Part shown: positions 10,944 through 19,507 of the stretch, piece after piece | How positions within the stretch are numbered: position 1 is the stretch's first letter | Layout of the letters: the number at the start of each line of letters is the position of its first letter | NCBI GenBank assembly: GCA_025060695.1 | Contig: JANXBH010000001.1 | Coordinates: forward strand, 90,730-154,729 | DNA: 64,000 nucleotides | Direction of reading: 5' to 3' | Origin: a candidate division WOR-3 bacterium | GTDB taxonomy: Bacteria; Hydrothermota; Hydrothermia; LBFQ01; DSFT01 | The notes under the pieces: model-generated | What the model saw: the letters and a program-made list of their open reading frames with translations, nothing else | Database searches by the model: none | What the model was told of the DNA's origin: nothing | Program-made: the position numbers and the translations under genes

Positions 10944-11669
10944 CTGGAAATTTATGTAGTTTTCTTGTATGCTTTAGTTTCAGATTTGGCAACAGGAATA
11001 GGAGCAATTCCTTTTTTTTTCATTAAAGACATCAAAAAGAAGATTTTAGGCTTTCTTGAAGCACTTGCAGGTGGTTTAATGATGGGTGCAAGTTTTAATT
11101 TAATATTTGAAGGGATAAATCTAAATATCTTGTTATTAAATATAGGAATGATTTTAGGAATACTTCTTGTTGTAGCTTCAAATAATTTTTTAAATGGTAA
11201 AGAGCTTGCACTTGGAAATATAAGAGGTATTTCAGCTAAAAGAGCTATATTGTTTTTATTTATAATGACCGCACATAGTTTCGCTGAAGGTATTGCAATT
11301 GGTGTTTCATTCGGTGGAAGGGAAAATCTTGGTATATTGACCTCTGTAGCTATAGCAATTCACAATATACCAGAGGGTCTTGCAATATCACTATACTTAA
11401 TTTCGCAAGGTGCAAGTCCAATCGCCTGCCTGTTTTGGAGTATATTCTCAAGTCTTCCTCAGCCAATTATGGCTGTCCCTTCTTATATCCTTGTTGAAAT
11501 CTTTAAACCAATTTTACCATTTGGTTTTGGCTTTGCAGCAGGAGCTATGATATATCTTGTATTATGGGATATTATACCAAGTTCCCTAAAATCAGTTTCA
11601 CAAGAATTTAACTCTATAACTATAATTTTAGGAACCTTATTAATGATAACTTTTTATAAATTACTCTAA
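10944..11669 (+). CDS. ZIP family metal transporter (probable CTG start)
   Basis: HSFAEG and HNIPEG motifs; in-frame CTG 21 nt upstream of the track start. Confidence 0.88.
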   Translation: MEIYVVFLYALVSDLATGIGAIPFFFIKDIKKKILGFLEALAGGLMMGASFNLIFEGINLNILLLNIGMILGILLVVASNNFLNGKELALGNIRGISAKRAILFLFIMTAHSFAEGIAIGVSFGGRENLGILTSVAIAIHNIPEGLAISLYLISQGASPIACLFWSIFSSLPQPIMAVPSYILVEIFKPILPFGFGFAAGAMIYLVLWDIIPSSLKSVSQEFNSITIILGTLLMITFYKLL

Positions 11670-12071
11670 TTTCTTTACTGGAACTTTTATTTTTTTCTCG
11701 CCTGACTTTTTAAATTTTAATACCAGCTCAATAGTGTCATTTTCTCTTAAGTCTTCTTTTAAGTTTATAAGCATTACATGAAGACCCCCTGGCTCTAAGC
11801 TTAGTTTATCCTTTATCACTAAATAGTCTATTTTTTTCATCTCCATCATATCACCCTTTTTTATTGTCTCATGTAATTCGGTTATATTCGCACAATTGCA
11901 GTATGCTTCATACAAAGTATCCTCCATACCTTGATTATTCTTTATTTTCATATATACCGCACTTGAACCATCCTTAGGAGCTATTCTCGCATATGGATTC
12001 AATATCTCTATATCCTCACCTACCTTATTACATCCAACTATAAAAAGTAATATCAAAATTTTTTGTCTTAT
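11661..12071 (-). CDS. Copper chaperone PCu(A)C lipoprotein (probable ATA start)
   Basis: ELHET..MMEM..LEPGGLHVML; ATA 12071 restores the (M)RQKILILLFIVG-C lipoprotein signal and is 10 nt after the -10 box at 12082-12087. Confidence 0.88.
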   Translation of the reverse strand: MRQKILILLFIVGCNKVGEDIEILNPYARIAPKDGSSAVYMKIKNNQGMEDTLYEAYCNCANITELHETIKKGDMMEMKKIDYLVIKDKLSLEPGGLHVMLINLKEDLRENDTIELVLKFKKSGEKKIKVPVKKLE

Positions 12072-12086
12072 GTTTTGATAAATTTT

Positions 12087-12104
12087 AAAGGGGGAACGGC
12101 CCCC
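12087..12104 (-). terminator. GC hairpin after the TonB receptor stop (putative weak terminator)
   Basis: GGGGG-CCGTT-CCCCC then TTT on the minus strand; the only conspicuous non-tRNA GC hairpin I noticed. Confidence 0.5.
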
Positions 12105-13921
12105 TATATAGAGATACTAATTGAGAAATTTCTGAAAGGTTCAAATGTTTTAAATGGATTGGTCGGTTCTATGTATTTTTCATTAAATAGATTATTTATA
12201 GAAAAGTTTAAACTTATTCTTCTAATGTTGTAATCTATCCCAAGAGAAAATATGGAAAATAGTTTTTTGCTTTTCTCATCAAAGAATGCTCTATGGTATA
12301 GCGTAATGAATTTATAACTTAGTCTCGTCCTTAACTGAGGTTTTGTATAAAATTCAATCTCAACCGAAGGTTTGGAGTATTCAAGTGTAGTACTAAGAAA
12401 AAAGTTATTAAACGGAATGAAATTCATATTAAGCAGCGAGTTGAAAATGTATATATCTTTATTTTCCCACGTATAGGCTGGATATCCTTCAATAGTATCA
12501 TTAGCAAACTTTAGTGAAATGTAGTTTTTTATATAACTTATAGACGGGTTAACATTAAGCATTATGAAATTTAAAGAATGCTTATAGTCTACATGAAAAC
12601 TAAGTAGAAGCTCCTCTTTTAAACTTGGATTTGGAATTTCGTATCTATTTGCTGTCTTGTGAATACCTTCAAATGTTAACTGCTGGAGTGATGGGTACTG
12701 AATTGACTGAGAAAGAGAAAAGTTAAAATCACTAAATTTCGTTCCAATTAAAAAGCTATAACCAATTTTCAGTTTCTCATCAAAGCTTGAGTAGCTTGGT
12801 ATTATTGAAAATGCATAATTAAGGTTCTTAAACTTGTTAGAATATAGAGTTGAAAGTATTATTCTGTTATAGTTATATTTATCTTCACCTTTTGAAAGAA
12901 AATCACTATAGTTTAAATTTAAGTAGAAGTTATTTGAATTATAAATAGTTTGGATTGTTCTTAGATTTAGCTGAGTTATTAGTTCATCTCCATCGTATTC
13001 TCTTTGGTCCGAGTTTTGAAAATCTAAAATAAAATTATTGTAGCTTAGTCTTGGATTTAGATATATATTTTTTGCTCTTGACTGACCATGAGCACCATGC
13101 ATAATTTTACTTTCTTCTAAGCTTGGCACGCCATAGTTTATAAAACTAAAATAGTTTCCAATCATAATTTTCTTATATTTTGCAGAAAGTATTGAGTATA
13201 TTGAACTATCGGAAGTGTTTTCTATTTCTGGATTTTTAAAGTCTCCACTTATTGAACCCTTAATACCAACTTTGTATGAGAAGTTTTTAAAGTTTCTATT
13301 ATCCTTAAAGAGCACAGAAAATCTGTCATTAGATGATAAATAGGAAAATTTACCCACATATCTATTCTCATTTGTTATATCAAATATCCTTAAGTCCAAG
13401 CCACCTGCTACAGAATTTATACCAAATATAGCGTTTGTAGATGTATTGCCTATATATATTTTATCCGCAAGTTCAAAGTCCATTACTATAGGATGGTCAA
13501 GGTAGTCGCTTTGGTCATGCAATATCGCACCATCTACAGTAATATTGTATTTATCCCTATTGAAACCGGAGATTATAGGCTTGTTCACTACACTACCATA
13601 CATTGTATTTTCAAGGTCAAAGTCCAATTTCCTTACCTCATTTAATCTTGTATATTTAGAAACGACTTCAACAGGTTTTAGGCTAATTCCTTCCACTTCA
13701 AGATATATTTCACTTGGAACATTTTCTTTAAATTTTAACATTTTATAGCCTATTCTATATATTATGATACTATCCTTATATTTCACATTAGCACAACCAC
13801 TATGGTCTGTAAAAGTAATACTTATTGGGCTATAAATCTTTACCGCTTCAAGCGGCTGTTTTGTCTCTTTATCATAAACACAAATTTTTAAGTTTTCTAA
13901 ATTTATAATTAAAGCTATCAT
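12104..13921 (-). CDS. TonB-dependent receptor with N-terminal carboxypeptidase-regulatory-like domain
   Basis: VYDKETKQPL..IGY, plug-like KPIISG..VDG, NPSLKEE, INNLFNEKY..RNFSISISI terminal strand; AGGAGG SD. Confidence 0.8.
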   Translation of the reverse strand: MIALIINLENLKICVYDKETKQPLEAVKIYSPISITFTDHSGCANVKYKDSIIIYRIGYKMLKFKENVPSEIYLEVEGISLKPVEVVSKYTRLNEVRKLDFDLENTMYGSVVNKPIISGFNRDKYNITVDGAILHDQSDYLDHPIVMDFELADKIYIGNTSTNAIFGINSVAGGLDLRIFDITNENRYVGKFSYLSSNDRFSVLFKDNRNFKNFSYKVGIKGSISGDFKNPEIENTSDSSIYSILSAKYKKIMIGNYFSFINYGVPSLEESKIMHGAHGQSRAKNIYLNPRLSYNNFILDFQNSDQREYDGDELITQLNLRTIQTIYNSNNFYLNLNYSDFLSKGEDKYNYNRIILSTLYSNKFKNLNYAFSIIPSYSSFDEKLKIGYSFLIGTKFSDFNFSLSQSIQYPSLQQLTFEGIHKTANRYEIPNPSLKEELLLSFHVDYKHSLNFIMLNVNPSISYIKNYISLKFANDTIEGYPAYTWENKDIYIFNSLLNMNFIPFNNFFLSTTLEYSKPSVEIEFYTKPQLRTRLSYKFITLYHRAFFDEKSKKLFSIFSLGIDYNIRRISLNFSINNLFNEKYIEPTNPFKTFEPFRNFSISISI

Positions 13922-13927
13922 TTTTTA

Positions 13928-13992
13928 CCTCCTTTTTTTATTATTTACTTTCTATTTTTTAAAGCTCAAATTTAAAGTTAAAAATTAGGAGG
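13928..13992 (-). promoter_or_regulatory. Putative SD/anti-SD hairpin controlling TonB receptor translation
   Basis: CCTCCT (Pro-Pro codons, 13987-13992) is complementary to the AGGAGG SD (13928-13933). Confidence 0.55.
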
Positions 13993-14238
13993 AGAGCGAA
14001 TATTTGGAAAAATAAGACTATAAGTTTCGTGCTTTTTAGTTTTCATTGATATTGAAACAATGTATAGAACTCTCGGTTTTTCTATTTTTAATGAAAAACC
14101 TTCGATTTTAGGAGGATTGTTTTGATAGTGTAAGATAAGACATTCTTCTAATATTGAATGATGAATATGATTGTGAAAGCTTGAAATTACAATTGCATTT
14201 AATATAAATATTAATGTGAGAAATGAGAAAATCTTCAA
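13978..14238 (-). CDS. DUF2946/CruR-like leader peptide with His/Cys motif and C-terminal RSPP
   Basis: Hydrophobic N-terminus, HNHIHH..EECLILH, ends IRSPPNF; directly upstream of the TonB receptor; -10 box at 14248-14253. Confidence 0.7.
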   Translation of the reverse strand: MKIFSFLTLIFILNAIVISSFHNHIHHSILEECLILHYQNNPPKIEGFSLKIEKPRVLYIVSISMKTKKHETYSLIFPNIRSPPNF

Positions 14239-15439
14239 GGTTTTATAATTTTAAAGTCCGCATCTATCAAAAATACTCCTTTTTTTACAATTTTTTCACC
14301 ATTCTTTATACCTTCAATTAAATAACCATCTTTTACATCAGTAATAATCTTTACTTCTTTTGCTTTAAATGAGCCATCTTCAAAAACATATACTATATCA
14401 CTATTTCCTGTTCTAATTACTGAACTTTTCGGAACAATCTTTCCCCTTATTTCCTTCACTATCTTACCTACTTCATAATTATTCTCAAAGAAAGTATTAT
14501 CATTTTTAAGAATAACGATAATTTCAAAGTAGTTTGCACTATTGGAAGAAGGTAAAATCTCTACTACTCTACCCTTAGTATTTCTAATTTCAACTATATC
14601 TCCTTTTTGAACATATAAAAAATCGCTTTTTCTAACGCTACCTATAAACTGAACAATAGAATTATTTACAATTTCCATAACTACAGAACCAGCCTCAAAT
14701 TTTTCACCTTCTGTTATATCAATTTTCAAAACTCTTCCACTAATAGGACTTCTAAAAATTATACTATCCGAAAATATATCTTCAGGACTTATTTGTAATA
14801 ACTTAATCCTCTCAAGAATAAAACTATCTTTAGTAATATCGAACTCCGATTTTATTCTTAAAATTTCAGGAGAATAAAAACTAAAAATCTTCTCTCCTCT
14901 ATTTATATATTCTCCTTCGTTTTGAATATAGAGATTTAAAACGTATCCAGAAAATCTTGGAACAATTTTTGTAATTGCATTTTTTGGAAATTTTACTACA
15001 CCTTCTATGATTATTTCCTTATAACCAACTGTATCTTTAACTAAAAAAAATCAATAAGTTTATTATCTATTTGAGAATGTGTATGCTTAACTTCCCCCTT
15101 AAATGGTATATTTATTAGCTTTTCAATTTTGTTTCCATCTAACTCTAAAATAATAAACCACTCACCACTCATAGAAACAAAAACTTTTCCTTCGTAATTT
15201 TTATTTAGTTCAAATACTTCTGTCATGGCAGGCATGCCTGGCATTTCCGGCATATACAAATACGCCTTAAATGACCTTGGTTTTGGTTCTATTATAAACT
15301 TTACCTTATTTTCTCTTTCCTTTAGCATTCCATCAGTAGTTAAGATTTTTACTTTATATCCTTTATCTACTATTTCAAGAACTTCTTTATAATTTTGACC
15401 ACAGGATATAAGAAAAAGTAATATAAAAATTTTCCTCAT
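14235..15439 (-). CDS. CusB-like RND periplasmic adaptor with N-terminal YtkA/FixH-like Met-rich lipoprotein domain; frameshifted at T8 (15043-15050)
   Basis: 0 frame MRKIFILLFLISC..MPEMPGMPAM..IDFF*; the -1 frame is open from the T8 run (LVKDTVG..IVPRFSGYV..FYSPE..RSPISG) into track ORF 14235-14729. Confidence 0.8.
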
Positions 15440-15449
15440 ATTCAAAATT

Positions 15450-16513: not shown

Positions 16514-19507
16514 TTGCTTGAAAAAATTGTAAATTTTTCTCTGAAAAATAAAACTACAATTTCACTTATCGTTATACTTTTAACTATTGTTGGAATATAT
16601 TCCATATTTAAAGTTAATATAGATGCAATACCAGATATTTCAGAAAATCAAGTAATTATTACCGCAAGGTATGAAGGACAGGACCCCATTACTATTGAGG
16701 AGCAAGTTAGCTATAAGTTAGTATCAAGACTACTATCAATACCTAAAATTAGAACTATTAGAGCAATTTCAATGAATAATATTGCTTTTGTATACATAAT
16801 TTTTAAAGATGGTGTAAATATATATTGGGCAAGGTCTAGAGTTTTAGAGTATATTGCAGGATTAGATATTCCAAAAGAAGTAAATATACAAATTGGCCCT
16901 CCCTCATCTTCTATATCTTGGATAGTTCAATATGTACTAATATCAGATAAACATACTATTGATGAGTTAACTGCATTTAACGAGTTTATATTAAAACCAT
17001 ATCTACAGGCAACAGAAGGTGTATCAGAAATAGCTACAATAGGTGGTTTTATAAAGGAATATCAGATAGACGTTGACCCATATAAATTAAAATCTTATAA
17101 TTTAAGTTTTGAAGAAGTTTTAAAGGCTATTGAAAATGCCAACTTATCAACAGGTGGAAGGTTTATAGAAATAGCCGAAAGATATTATAACATAAGGGGA
17201 TACGGATATATTAGAACATTGGAAGATATTGAGAATATTTCTATAAAAGGCATAAAAATTAAGGATATAGGTATTGTTCAAATAGGTCCTTCAATAAGAG
17301 AAGGAGCTTTGGACTATAATGCAAAAGGTGAATCGGTAGGTGGTATTATTATTTCAACAATAGGAGAAAATGCGTATAAAGTAATTAGAAATGTAAAAGA
17401 AAAAATAAAGAAGATAAATTTGCCTGAAGGTATGAAAATAGAAATCGTTTACGATAGAAGTTATTTAATTGAGGAAAGCATTAAAACATTGATTAGCGCA
17501 ATATTAAAAGAAAGTCTTATAATCGCAATATTAGTTTATATTTTTTTAGTTTCAATAAAATCTTCTATTTCAATAATTATTATACTTCCTCTTTCGGTAA
17601 TTTTATCTATAATTTTTGTAAAAATTTTTAACATTACTTTAAACATAATGAGTCTTGGTGGTTTTATACTATCGCTTGGAGTTTTGATTGATATGGCGGT
17701 TGTTCTTGTAGAAAGCAGTCATAAGTATATTGAGCAAGGATATTCCAAAATAGAAGCAATAGAAAAATCAGTTAAGGAACTTTCAAGAAGTATTTTCTTT
17801 TCGCTATTAATCATTACAATATCATTTTTACCAGTTTTCTTTCTTACTGGTGAGGAAGGAAAACTATTTAAGCCATTAGCTATTACCAAAACCTTTTCCA
17901 TGTTAATAGCTTCAATACTTTCTATTTCTTTCATAATCATTTTAATATATTTCTTCCTCCCAAATAAAACCAAACCTGAAATGGAAAATCCTATAAATAG
18001 AATAATTTTGAAAACTTACGAGTTCACATTCAAAATTGTATATAAATATCCATTAGCTTTTATAGTGTTTTTTATTTTGTTTTCCGTTTTCGGTATTTTT
18101 ATTTATAAAACCATAAAAAGCGAATTCTTACCACCATTTAATGAAGGCTCAATTTTATATATGCCATCTACAACCTCAGGTATTTCTATACAAAAAGGTA
18201 TTGAAGTACTTAGATATATGGATTCTATTATTATAAGTAATGAAAATGTAAGAGCGGTTTTTGGAAAAATTTCAAGGGCAAACACAGCTACTGACCCTGC
18301 ACCACCTAGCATGATTGAAACTAATATAGAGCTAAAAGACCCAAAGAAAATATACGAAGTTATAAATGAATTAAGCCATAAACTAAATATCCCTGGATTT
18401 ATAAACACATTTAGTATGCCAATTAGAACAAGGATAGATATGTTAAAAACAGGCATTAGAACTCCACTTGGAATAAAAGTATATGGAAATGATCCTTATA
18501 TTACCGAAAGTTTAGCAATAGAGATAGAAAAATTATTAAGGAGTTTAAGAGAGACAAAATATGCCTATGCAGAAAGACTTTCAAATTCATACTACATTAT
18601 AATTAGTCCAAGAAGAGAAAGAATTTCCCAATACAATATAAGTATAAAGGAGATTATGGATATTATAAATTTTTACATTGGTGGAAATACTATTACTTAC
18701 AAGATTGAAAATAGATTTAGCTATCCAATTAGAGCAAGAATTCTAAGAGACTATAGAGAAATTGAATATATTAAGAGGATACCTATTTTTACAACTTCAG
18801 GTTTTGTAAGCTTAGAAGATATATGCGATATTCAAATTAAAAGAGGTTTTGAAATGATTAGAAATGAAAATGGATTTATTACAAGTTATATTTATCTTGA
18901 TAGTCATGACGACTATTTAAAATATATTCAAAAAGTAAATTCTATAATAAATTCATTCATAAAATTCCCCTCTGGATATTTTTATGAGGTTTCAGGTCAA
19001 TACGAAGACTTAAAGAGAGTTCAAAGCACACTTGTTTTTATTATTCCAATGACCATATTCATTATATTTATTTTGCTATATATGAACTTTAAGAGTTTAG
19101 TAAAGAGTATTTTAGTATTGATATTACTTATATTTCCACTTTCGGGAGCCTTTATTACTATAAAGTTATTAAACTACAATTTATCAATTGCGGTATGGAT
19201 TGGAATTGTTGCACTTTTAGGTATAAGTACGGAAATTATTGTAGTAAAAATTGCGTTTTTAGATTTAGGTTTTGAAAAGTTCAATAACAAATACGAGGCT
19301 ATACACTGGGCAGTGATAACAAGATTAAGACCAATTACAATTACTACACTAACCGCATTCTTTTCACTAATTCCTATAATGTTTGAATTTACACTTGGTG
19401 CAGATATTATAAAAAGAATAGTTGCACCCATGATAGGAGGTATATTCTTTACATTCATTTTAAGTTTATATATCTTGCCAAGTTTTTATGTAATGTTTAA
19501 AAAATAG
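16514..19507 (+). CDS. cusA: CusA/CzcA heavy-metal efflux RND permease (Cu/Ag type)
   Basis: DAIPDISENQV, YWARSRVLE, EGKLFKPLA, Met-triad contexts LYMP, TDPAPPSM, MPIRTRIDML. Confidence 0.92.
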   Translation: MLEKIVNFSLKNKTTISLIVILLTIVGIYSIFKVNIDAIPDISENQVIITARYEGQDPITIEEQVSYKLVSRLLSIPKIRTIRAISMNNIAFVYIIFKDGVNIYWARSRVLEYIAGLDIPKEVNIQIGPPSSSISWIVQYVLISDKHTIDELTAFNEFILKPYLQATEGVSEIATIGGFIKEYQIDVDPYKLKSYNLSFEEVLKAIENANLSTGGRFIEIAERYYNIRGYGYIRTLEDIENISIKGIKIKDIGIVQIGPSIREGALDYNAKGESVGGIIISTIGENAYKVIRNVKEKIKKINLPEGMKIEIVYDRSYLIEESIKTLISAILKESLIIAILVYIFLVSIKSSISIIIILPLSVILSIIFVKIFNITLNIMSLGGFILSLGVLIDMAVVLVESSHKYIEQGYSKIEAIEKSVKELSRSIFFSLLIITISFLPVFFLTGEEGKLFKPLAITKTFSMLIASILSISFIIILIYFFLPNKTKPEMENPINRIILKTYEFTFKIVYKYPLAFIVFFILFSVFGIFIYKTIKSEFLPPFNEGSILYMPSTTSGISIQKGIEVLRYMDSIIISNENVRAVFGKISRANTATDPAPPSMIETNIELKDPKKIYEVINELSHKLNIPGFINTFSMPIRTRIDMLKTGIRTPLGIKVYGNDPYITESLAIEIEKLLRSLRETKYAYAERLSNSYYIIISPRRERISQYNISIKEIMDIINFYIGGNTITYKIENRFSYPIRARILRDYREIEYIKRIPIFTTSGFVSLEDICDIQIKRGFEMIRNENGFITSYIYLDSHDDYLKYIQKVNSIINSFIKFPSGYFYEVSGQYEDLKRVQSTLVFIIPMTIFIIFILLYMNFKSLVKSILVLILLIFPLSGAFITIKLLNYNLSIAVWIGIVALLGISTEIIVVKIAFLDLGFEKFNNKYEAIHWAVITRLRPITITTLTAFFSLIPIMFEFTLGADIIKRIVAPMIGGIFFTFILSLYILPSFYVMFKK

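Follow-up and report, generated by a model that had tools for sequence, protein, structure and literature searches.

A conserved leader peptide with a C-terminal arrest-like motif precedes a ZnuD-like receptor gene in a candidate division WOR-3 bacterium

Introduction

Whether a short peptide can tie the synthesis of a metal importer to the supply of its metal, and which metal that would be, is the question raised by a locus on the minus strand of a 64,000-nucleotide stretch of DNA (hereafter the window; GenBank assembly GCA_025060695.1, contig JANXBH010000001.1, positions 90,730 to 154,729) from the 1.5-Mb genome of a candidate division WOR-3 bacterium. Here, in DNA with a GC content of about 29%, an open reading frame (ORF) of 86 residues (13978-14238) lies directly upstream of the gene for a TonB-dependent receptor of 605 residues (12104..13921). 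The original prediction, made from the sequence alone, held that a ribosome stalled at an RSPP motif of this leader unmasks the receptor's Shine-Dalgarno (SD) sequence, and that binding of copper, zinc or nickel, or export force, relieves the arrest and shuts off uptake. Copper is the signal for CruR and CutF, the arrest leaders whose metal sensing has been tested to date, and Roy et al. stated that no riboswitch was known for copper or zinc (PMC9426467).

Results and Discussion

A conserved leader peptide with an arrest-like motif

The leader ORF starts with a TTG codon that overlaps the stop codon of an upstream cusB-like frame. A hydrophobic segment at residues 3-19 (14182..14232), identified by hydropathy only, is a putative export signal or membrane anchor; the best 17-residue mean hydropathy is 2.5 in the window leader and 2.1-2.7 in all 11 WOR-3 leaders. 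There follow the stretch HNHIHH..EECLILH, containing the candidate metal site H22-x-H24...C33 (14140..14175), and the C-terminus IRSPPNF, in which the arrest-like motif RSPP is encoded by CGC TCT CCT CCT (13987..13998) and PP sits two residues before the stop. The stop is separated by 56 nt from the receptor ATG (13921), which is preceded by the SD sequence AGGAGG (13928..13933). The elements named in the original prediction were all found at their places.

Motifs of the form R[ASG]PP were missing from the 1002 ORFs of at least 200 residues of this genome, against 3.2 expected among the 75 occurrences of x[ASG]PP in the long ORFs, and the leader was the sole ORF of 40-200 residues in the genome with such a motif near its C-terminus. 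Of 61 related genomes examined for the receptor, 13 yielded a match, one of them cut at a contig end; among the 12 genomes with upstream DNA (the window genome included), the leader stood directly upstream of the receptor in eight and was absent in four. The eight leaders, 20-48% identical to the window protein, share a Ser, F21, H22, H24, C33, R81, P83 and P84, while position 82 is Ser or Ala, two of the eight reading RAPP instead of RSPP, and the motif lies 2-5 residues before the stop. The proposal that His residues replace a CxxC motif did not hold: C33 is invariant, H26, H27 and H37 of the window leader vary among relatives, and it is the second Cys of CxxC that is absent (C33-L-I-L here, C-P-A-Y in the other genus). 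From its conservation at the sequence level, the 86-residue ORF is a real leader. Because R[ASG]PP is absent from long ORFs yet invariant in relatives of such low identity, what exceeds chance at this locus is the peptide, not the fold.

Five metagenome loci again carried leader and receptor with unrelated flanking genes; since these genes differ between loci, leader and receptor travel as a two-gene unit. A profile of the eight leaders run against 272 genomes of the phylum gave strong matches only in the eight genomes used to build it; weak ones (E 4e-5 to 0.009), lying within long ORFs or running through stops, came from another 12 genomes. Close leader homologues are labelled candidate division WOR-3 by NCBI, and the DNA is present in hot-spring metagenomes of two studies; among the listed sources containing it there was no RNA dataset.

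The hexamer TAAAAT at 14248..14253, 9 nt upstream of the leader start and within the 3′ end of the cusB-like frame, resembles a -10 box, and TA[AT]AAT recurs some 9-11 nt upstream of the leader start in 11/11 WOR-3 loci, likely as the leader's own near-leaderless promoter; a promoter scan returned ten weak sites against 5.5 expected and none at the leader start. Genome-wide, the occurrences of TA[AT]AAT (259 sites for 924 long ORFs) form a peak 6-11 nt upstream of ATG. Together with the share of long ORFs that have a GGAGG SD sequence 4-10 nt before ATG, about 10% (94/924), this peak suggests a genome translated largely in leaderless or near-leaderless fashion; the receptor is thus one of its few SD-bearing genes, as originally noted.

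Descent of the leader from a wider family

A search of 1.84 billion representative sequences with the profile of the eight leaders gave 11 matches, distant homologues reading HxH...CxxC...RAPP or HxH...CxxY...RAPP. The profiles of the WOR-3 and CxxC leaders align end to end (hhalign 97.8%, E 1.3e-12), H22, H24 and C33 are invariant in 15/15 sequences of the wider alignment, and the distance from the first Cys to the motif Arg, 48 residues in the window, is 48-50 in all loci compared. Using the CxxC alignment, we fetched 32 genome loci, mostly from Sulfurimonas and other Campylobacterales, with a complete leader in 27 of them and an ORF downstream of it in 26. Three leaders of the wider family (L081, L082 and L091) precede other cargo without a Pfam match: in L081 (3310-4329) and L082 a 340-residue protein starting CNGSHVLG after its signal, and in L091 (3319-4794) a His-rich protein of 492 residues.

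The suggested hidden Markov model search against DUF2946, the family of CruR, went against membership, as neither the window leader nor its seven orthologues matched Pfam PF11162. No protein in the 19 genomes of the order exceeded the PF11162 cut-off, and one distant homologue, P0005, scored 18 bits, below the cut-off of 23.7. Scans of the eight leaders with Pfam and NCBIfam returned no meaningful family, and the nearest named Atlas cluster, 54% DUF2946 (score 0.90, 146 shared features), is a weak lead. Atlas structural look-alikes, with template-modelling (TM) scores all below 0.5 on a model with a predicted local distance difference test (pLDDT) value of 0.54, were not used. The leader is, as judged from sequence, CruR/CutF-like by anatomy and descended from the CxxC family, and its length, the place of its PP and the gap to the receptor bring it within the rule set for CutF-like proteins; it lies outside DUF2946 by both the profile test and the CxxC test.

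A ZnuD-like receptor points to zinc

A profile of the receptor ranked ZnuD first (3e-14 vs 2e-8 for OprC), and an enlarged profile (alignment A6, of nine WOR-3 rows and 11 extra rows from the neighbours of 7/11 distant homologues) gave 1e-72 for ZnuD vs 9e-50 for the next family, with OprC as the third. Profiles were needed here, a single-sequence search of the PDB with the receptor having returned nothing. In a fold search with the receptor model (pLDDT 71.6), ZnuD occupied ranks 1-3. The invariant residues D142, H143 and H421 align in HMMER with D99, H100 and H499 of ZnuD (the chain and the paper differ in numbering by a constant offset of 14), that is, with three of its four zinc ligands D99, H100, E340 and H499 (PMC4557270). 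The plug site has no invariant Cys or Met, so that a site of the OprC type (copper bound by C143, M147, H323 and M325; PMC8610252) is missing. At the N-terminus of the receptor and its orthologues (13880-13921, minus strand), the hydrophobic segment ahead of the first beta strand spans no more than some 8-12 residues and lacks a basic N-region, which is unusual for a Sec signal.

Downstream of 23/26 leaders in the distant loci stands a gene of a single family of porin-like outer-membrane proteins, and of the 22 loci that extend at least 2 kb downstream, 19 continue with a znuA-like gene. Between the znuA-like gene and its divergent neighbour, locus L096 (1400-1440) holds an inverted repeat, AAAATTTTAA-N4-TTAAAATTTT, which may be two back-to-back -10 boxes or the operator of a metal regulator.

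The fourth ligand, E340 of ZnuD, probably corresponds to the invariant E308, a match made by eye in a gapped stretch of the alignment. Against zinc weigh the two heme-copper oxidases of the genome and the local neighbours, which are of the copper type, with a CusCBA-like cluster upstream of the leader and a PCuAC copper chaperone (11661..12056, minus strand; Pfam E 1e-25) after the receptor. PCuAC was, however, on a contig other than that of the receptor in 11 of 12 receptor-bearing relatives and was not found in the twelfth, and therefore probably lies outside the conserved module. Neither the Cus operon nor PCuAC was retained as conserved context, these neighbours not being kept in relatives.

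The receptor cargo is, by sequence, ZnuD-like rather than copper-type. With ZnuD as its top sequence and fold match, three of the four ligands aligned and distant relatives placed at the head of znuA operons, zinc is a likelier metal than copper, and of the originally proposed copper, zinc or nickel it is the zinc part that is favoured over copper. Divalent metals other than zinc can also be the cargo of ZnuA-family and ZnuD-like proteins, for which reason zinc is likely rather than established. As regards control by Zur, the genome has one Fur-family gene.

Around the unit lie a gene for a ZIP/ZupT-like transporter (10965-11669, plus strand), convergent with the receptor unit, and one for a CusA/CzcA-family pump (16514-19507, plus strand), divergent from the Cus cluster, which makes this a local metal-homeostasis island. 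The reading frame changes between a YtkA-domain ORF (15041-15445) and the CusB-like frame (14235-15032), at a T8 run with a stop after it (15031-15050, minus strand). No indel is seen at this place in contigs assembled from three DNA runs of two studies, so the break is not an assembly slip of the window genome alone.

Pairing between the leader and the receptor Shine-Dalgarno sequence

The two Pro codons of the motif (CCT CCT, 13987-13992) are, as originally pointed out, the complement of AGGAGG, and the imperfect extensions of the pairing are present as well. The minimum-free-energy (MFE) fold of minus-strand 13915-14010 is the predicted SD stem, in which the leader 3′ end pairs with the A-run and SD sequence of the receptor (13928..13992) and which includes the UUUU/AAAA and ACUUU/AAAGU extensions, at -11.9 kcal/mol. 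In the ensemble, its six-pair helix has pair probabilities of 0.90-0.97 at 37 °C, which become 0.72-0.84 at 70 °C. When a ribosome was modelled with its footprint on the first Pro codon, the opening cost of the ribosome-binding site fell from 7.8 to 1.2 kcal/mol; of the other SD-led genes given this geometry, at 37 and 65 °C, 3/128 matched the drop. With Ala codons in place of PP the predicted effect shrank from 6.5 to 1.5 kcal/mol, and against shuffles of the stretch from PP to the SD sequence the natural order came out ahead at p 0.06 for the window and at 0.10-0.86 for the other ten loci.

Several results weigh against the stem, or against its selection, in WOR-3. The stem is the one originally drawn, but its stability is not beyond that of shuffled sequences (z -1.15; 21/200 shuffles fold equally well), and the AU-rich MFE structure retains only -0.3 kcal/mol at 70 °C in an organism whose DNA comes from hot-spring samples, a temperature extrapolation that needs care. 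Synonymous recoding of the window leader equalled the natural effect in 15% of 60 trials (p 0.15), and recoding CCT to CCA only halved the predicted effect, from 6.5 to 3.3 kcal/mol. CCTCCT occurs in 1/11 WOR-3 loci; the natural sequence exceeds the synonymous mean in 4/11, reaching p<=0.05 in 2/11; and arms paired no better with their own than with swapped partners (p about 0.96, ten distinct pairs), in a test of low power given an SD sequence that is nearly invariant. With one folding window the SD sequence paired to the motif at P>=0.7 in 4/8 genomes; with another, 8/11 WOR-3 loci had at least three expected SD-motif pairs. The predicted effect is merely 0.8-1.5 kcal/mol in L002, L004 and L041, and the SD sequence of L037 is GAAGG without a compensating change. 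The receptor AGGAGG does accompany the leader, being present in 8/8 leader-bearing genomes and absent from 4/4 leaderless loci; the four leaderless receptors group together in the alignment, as judged by eye, so that the joint absence counts as about one event, and any gene in second place in an operon can be expected to have an SD sequence. The exact match of CCT-CCT to AGGAGG is thus not supported as a selected feature, and the covariation looked for in orthologous WOR-3 loci was not seen; covariation of the Pro codons with the SD sequence, rejected in WOR-3, was also unseen in the distant relatives (p 0.24).

Any Pro-Pro pair is encoded by CCNCC, which is partly complementary to GGAGG, and CCTCCT makes up 16% of the 456 Pro-Pro codon pairs of the genome. 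In the WOR-3 leaders the anti-SD would be supplied largely by the Ser and Pro codons themselves, a partial anti-SD coming free from the genetic code. As Pro-Pro is always CCNCC, a ribosome stalled there would sit on the SD-hiding bases without a separate RNA element.

In the Campylobacterota relatives, the anti-SD consists of the codons after PP together with the stop and pairs with the SD region, under what would be, in the model, the footprint of a ribosome stalled at RAPP. The natural post-PP arm pairs better with its own SD region than swapped arms do (-8.2 vs -6.0, p 5e-5, n 26), and the same swap among ten distant representatives of less than 50% identity gave p 0.004, values which are inflated by related sequences. 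The natural sequence beat the recoded mean in 23 of 25 loci, nine of them at p<=0.02, the test omitting one locus with a 214-nt gap. The gap of that length after the leader of L067 holds what is probably a small mobile element, an inverted repeat both long and perfect, around which the anti-SD/SD stem still closes. SD unmasking is, on these sequence comparisons, well supported for the wider family, and on folding models plausible for the WOR-3 leaders.

The arginine codon of the motif

The motif Arg codon (13996-13998, minus strand) is CGC in 6/8 genomes, although the share of CGC among Arg codons is 0.6% in this genome and, by small samples, 0-11% in the relatives. It is CGC or CGT in all nine RSPP loci and AGG in both RAPP loci. 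A role of CGC in the stem was rejected, Arg codon swaps changing the effect inconsistently. Before TCN codons, the share of AGA falls to 17% and that of CGC rises to 4.9%; avoidance of GATC accounts for part of the CGC use, and shared descent may account for more. That CGC slows the ribosome ahead of a weak motif is a guess. GATC is avoided genome-wide (680 sites vs about 2836 expected), which suggests a GATC-cutting restriction system or its history.

Proposed mechanism and alternatives

We put at about even the chance that the locus encodes a CruR/CutF-like arrest leader which unmasks the receptor SD sequence under zinc shortage. A near-leaderless transcript would begin just upstream of the leader, whose hydrophobic segment would bring the nascent chain to the Sec translocon, leaving H22, H24 and C33 some 50-60 residues from the peptidyl-transferase centre and outside the tunnel. 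The ribosome would arrest with the two Pro codons in its P and A sites, the position at which CruR arrest was toeprinted (PMC12992588), and would cover the 5′ arm of the stem, so that the receptor is translated. Zinc bound by H22, H24 and C33 would fold or pull the chain and release the arrest; the freed ribosome would terminate two codons later, the stem would reform and uptake would stop. That metal should turn uptake off follows from the cargo being an importer and from the analogy with CruR. Of the original idea that stalling unmasks the SD sequence, the tie of an arrest-motif leader to the receptor and the fall in opening cost speak in its favour, while a selected exact codon match finds no support. 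Against the mechanism also stand the loss of one Cys of CxxC, the second, on which copper control by CruR depends, and the use of RSPP, a weaker motif than RAPP and partly permissive for arrest in ApdA/ApdP (PMC12992588). A more specific version, in which the arrest switch senses zinc by a His-His-Cys site of reduced form, the motif codons themselves are the anti-SD and the rare CGC slows the ribosome into RSPP, is tentative and seems to us rather doubtful.

The same arrest switch could respond, as CruR does, to copper or to another metal such as nickel, cobalt or cadmium. PCuAC after the receptor, the CusCBA-like cluster before the leader, the two heme-copper oxidase subunit I genes of the genome, the third place of OprC in the profile search and the copper sensing of the characterised relatives would all suit this reading, which is nonetheless unlikely given copper neighbours that are not kept in relatives, a plug site with Asp-His and no invariant Cys or Met where OprC has C143/M147/H323/M325, and distant relatives at the head of znuA operons. 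Somewhat less likely again is an arrest that acts mainly through Rho-dependent termination or plain translational coupling, with the SD stem a by-product of the Pro codons. CruR works through Rho (PMC9426467), which is encoded in this genome, as is EF-P, and the WOR-3 stem is without covariation or synonymous selection; but the gap is 48-81 nt and C-poor, as against 162 nt in CruR, and in the Campylobacterota homologues the anti-SD stem covaries and lies beneath the footprint of the ribosome.

Two further readings dispense with metal sensing. The WOR-3 leader may be a degenerate switch that merely delivers ribosomes to the receptor without regulation, as the lost second Cys, the partly permissive RSPP, the weak predicted effect in several relatives and the 4/12 receptors without a leader might indicate. 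We give this a place below termination or coupling, for across two families six residues and their spacing have stayed the same, with identity elsewhere down to 20-26%, and the motif is otherwise excluded from the proteome. Least probable of the four is an export monitor of the SecM type, in which pulling by the translocon alone would free the arrest and link receptor synthesis to export capacity: an export signal plus a C-terminal RxPP is indeed the plan of SecM, ApdA and ApdP (PMC10987492), and just three candidate ligands remain, yet neither H22, H24 and C33 nor their spacing from R81 changes between phyla, and the downstream genes are for metal importers, not sec genes. Release by zinc of an arrest that unmasks the SD sequence remains the reading we prefer.

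Relation to known systems and significance

The closest published counterpart of the leader is CruR (Bp2923, DUF2946/PF11162) of Bordetella pertussis (PMC9426467, PMC12992588), likewise the first gene of its unit, with an export signal and a TonB-dependent importer downstream, in which a Cys motif precedes the C-terminal RxPP by 49 residues (C90, R139; PMC9426467), within the range of 48-50 seen here; the expected direction, metal turning uptake off, is also the same. In contrast to CruR, with CxxC, 145 residues and a gap of 162 nt, the WOR-3 leader combines H-x-H with one Cys, ends in RSPP, has 86 residues and a gap of 56 nt, precedes a ZnuD-like cargo, is predicted to act by SD masking rather than Rho termination, has no PF11162 match and belongs to the phylum WOR-3. 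With CutF of Rhodobacter capsulatus (10.1101/2022.11.11.516240; 10.1101/2025.02.05.636593) it shares an exported leader of <150 residues, a Cys/His site, a C-terminal PP within 15 residues of the end and, as a prediction here, a stem-loop that hides the downstream SD sequence and is opened by stalling. CutF, however, stalls in the presence of copper and switches on an oxidase that detoxifies, whereas the cargo here is an importer, and its anti-SD lies in an intergenic stem-loop, whereas here it overlaps the motif codons. SecM, ApdA and ApdP (PMC10987492) also combine an RxPP-type motif with a stalled ribosome that opens an SD-hiding stem, but they monitor protein export, control sec/yidC genes and have no metal site. 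The receptor resembles ZnuD of Neisseria meningitidis (PDB 4RDR; PMC4557270) as its best sequence and fold match with conserved plug Asp-His and loop-6 His ligands; it differs in an identity of about 14% in the structural alignment and an extra N-terminal domain, and ZnuD is under Zur control.

The general design has thus been published. An enriched class of RAPP leaders ahead of TonB receptors has been described (PMC12992588), and at least nine rows of the source data of that paper are small ORFs with His and Cys that end in RAPP before 'zinc-regulated' outer-membrane receptors; its list covers RAPP, not RSPP, the word 'zinc' is absent from its main text, and 'WOR-3' was not found in the source-data files searched. 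CutF-like proteins with His-only sites before nickel and cobalt genes have likewise been described. Literature searches outside subscription journals found no experimental zinc-responsive arrest peptide and nothing on this WOR-3 leader family. What is new here is the zinc-type cargo, the one-Cys site, RSPP and the new phylum.

The gain therefore lies in the metal and the variant, not in the mechanism. With a leader before a ZnuD-type importer and relatives before znuAB operons, the question of a zinc-sensing arrest peptide becomes directly testable, and the natural series from CxxC/RAPP through CxxY/RAPP to CxxL/RSPP shows which ligands matter. If the proposed switch is real, it would be a post-transcriptional zinc sensor in a thermophile with mostly leaderless genes.

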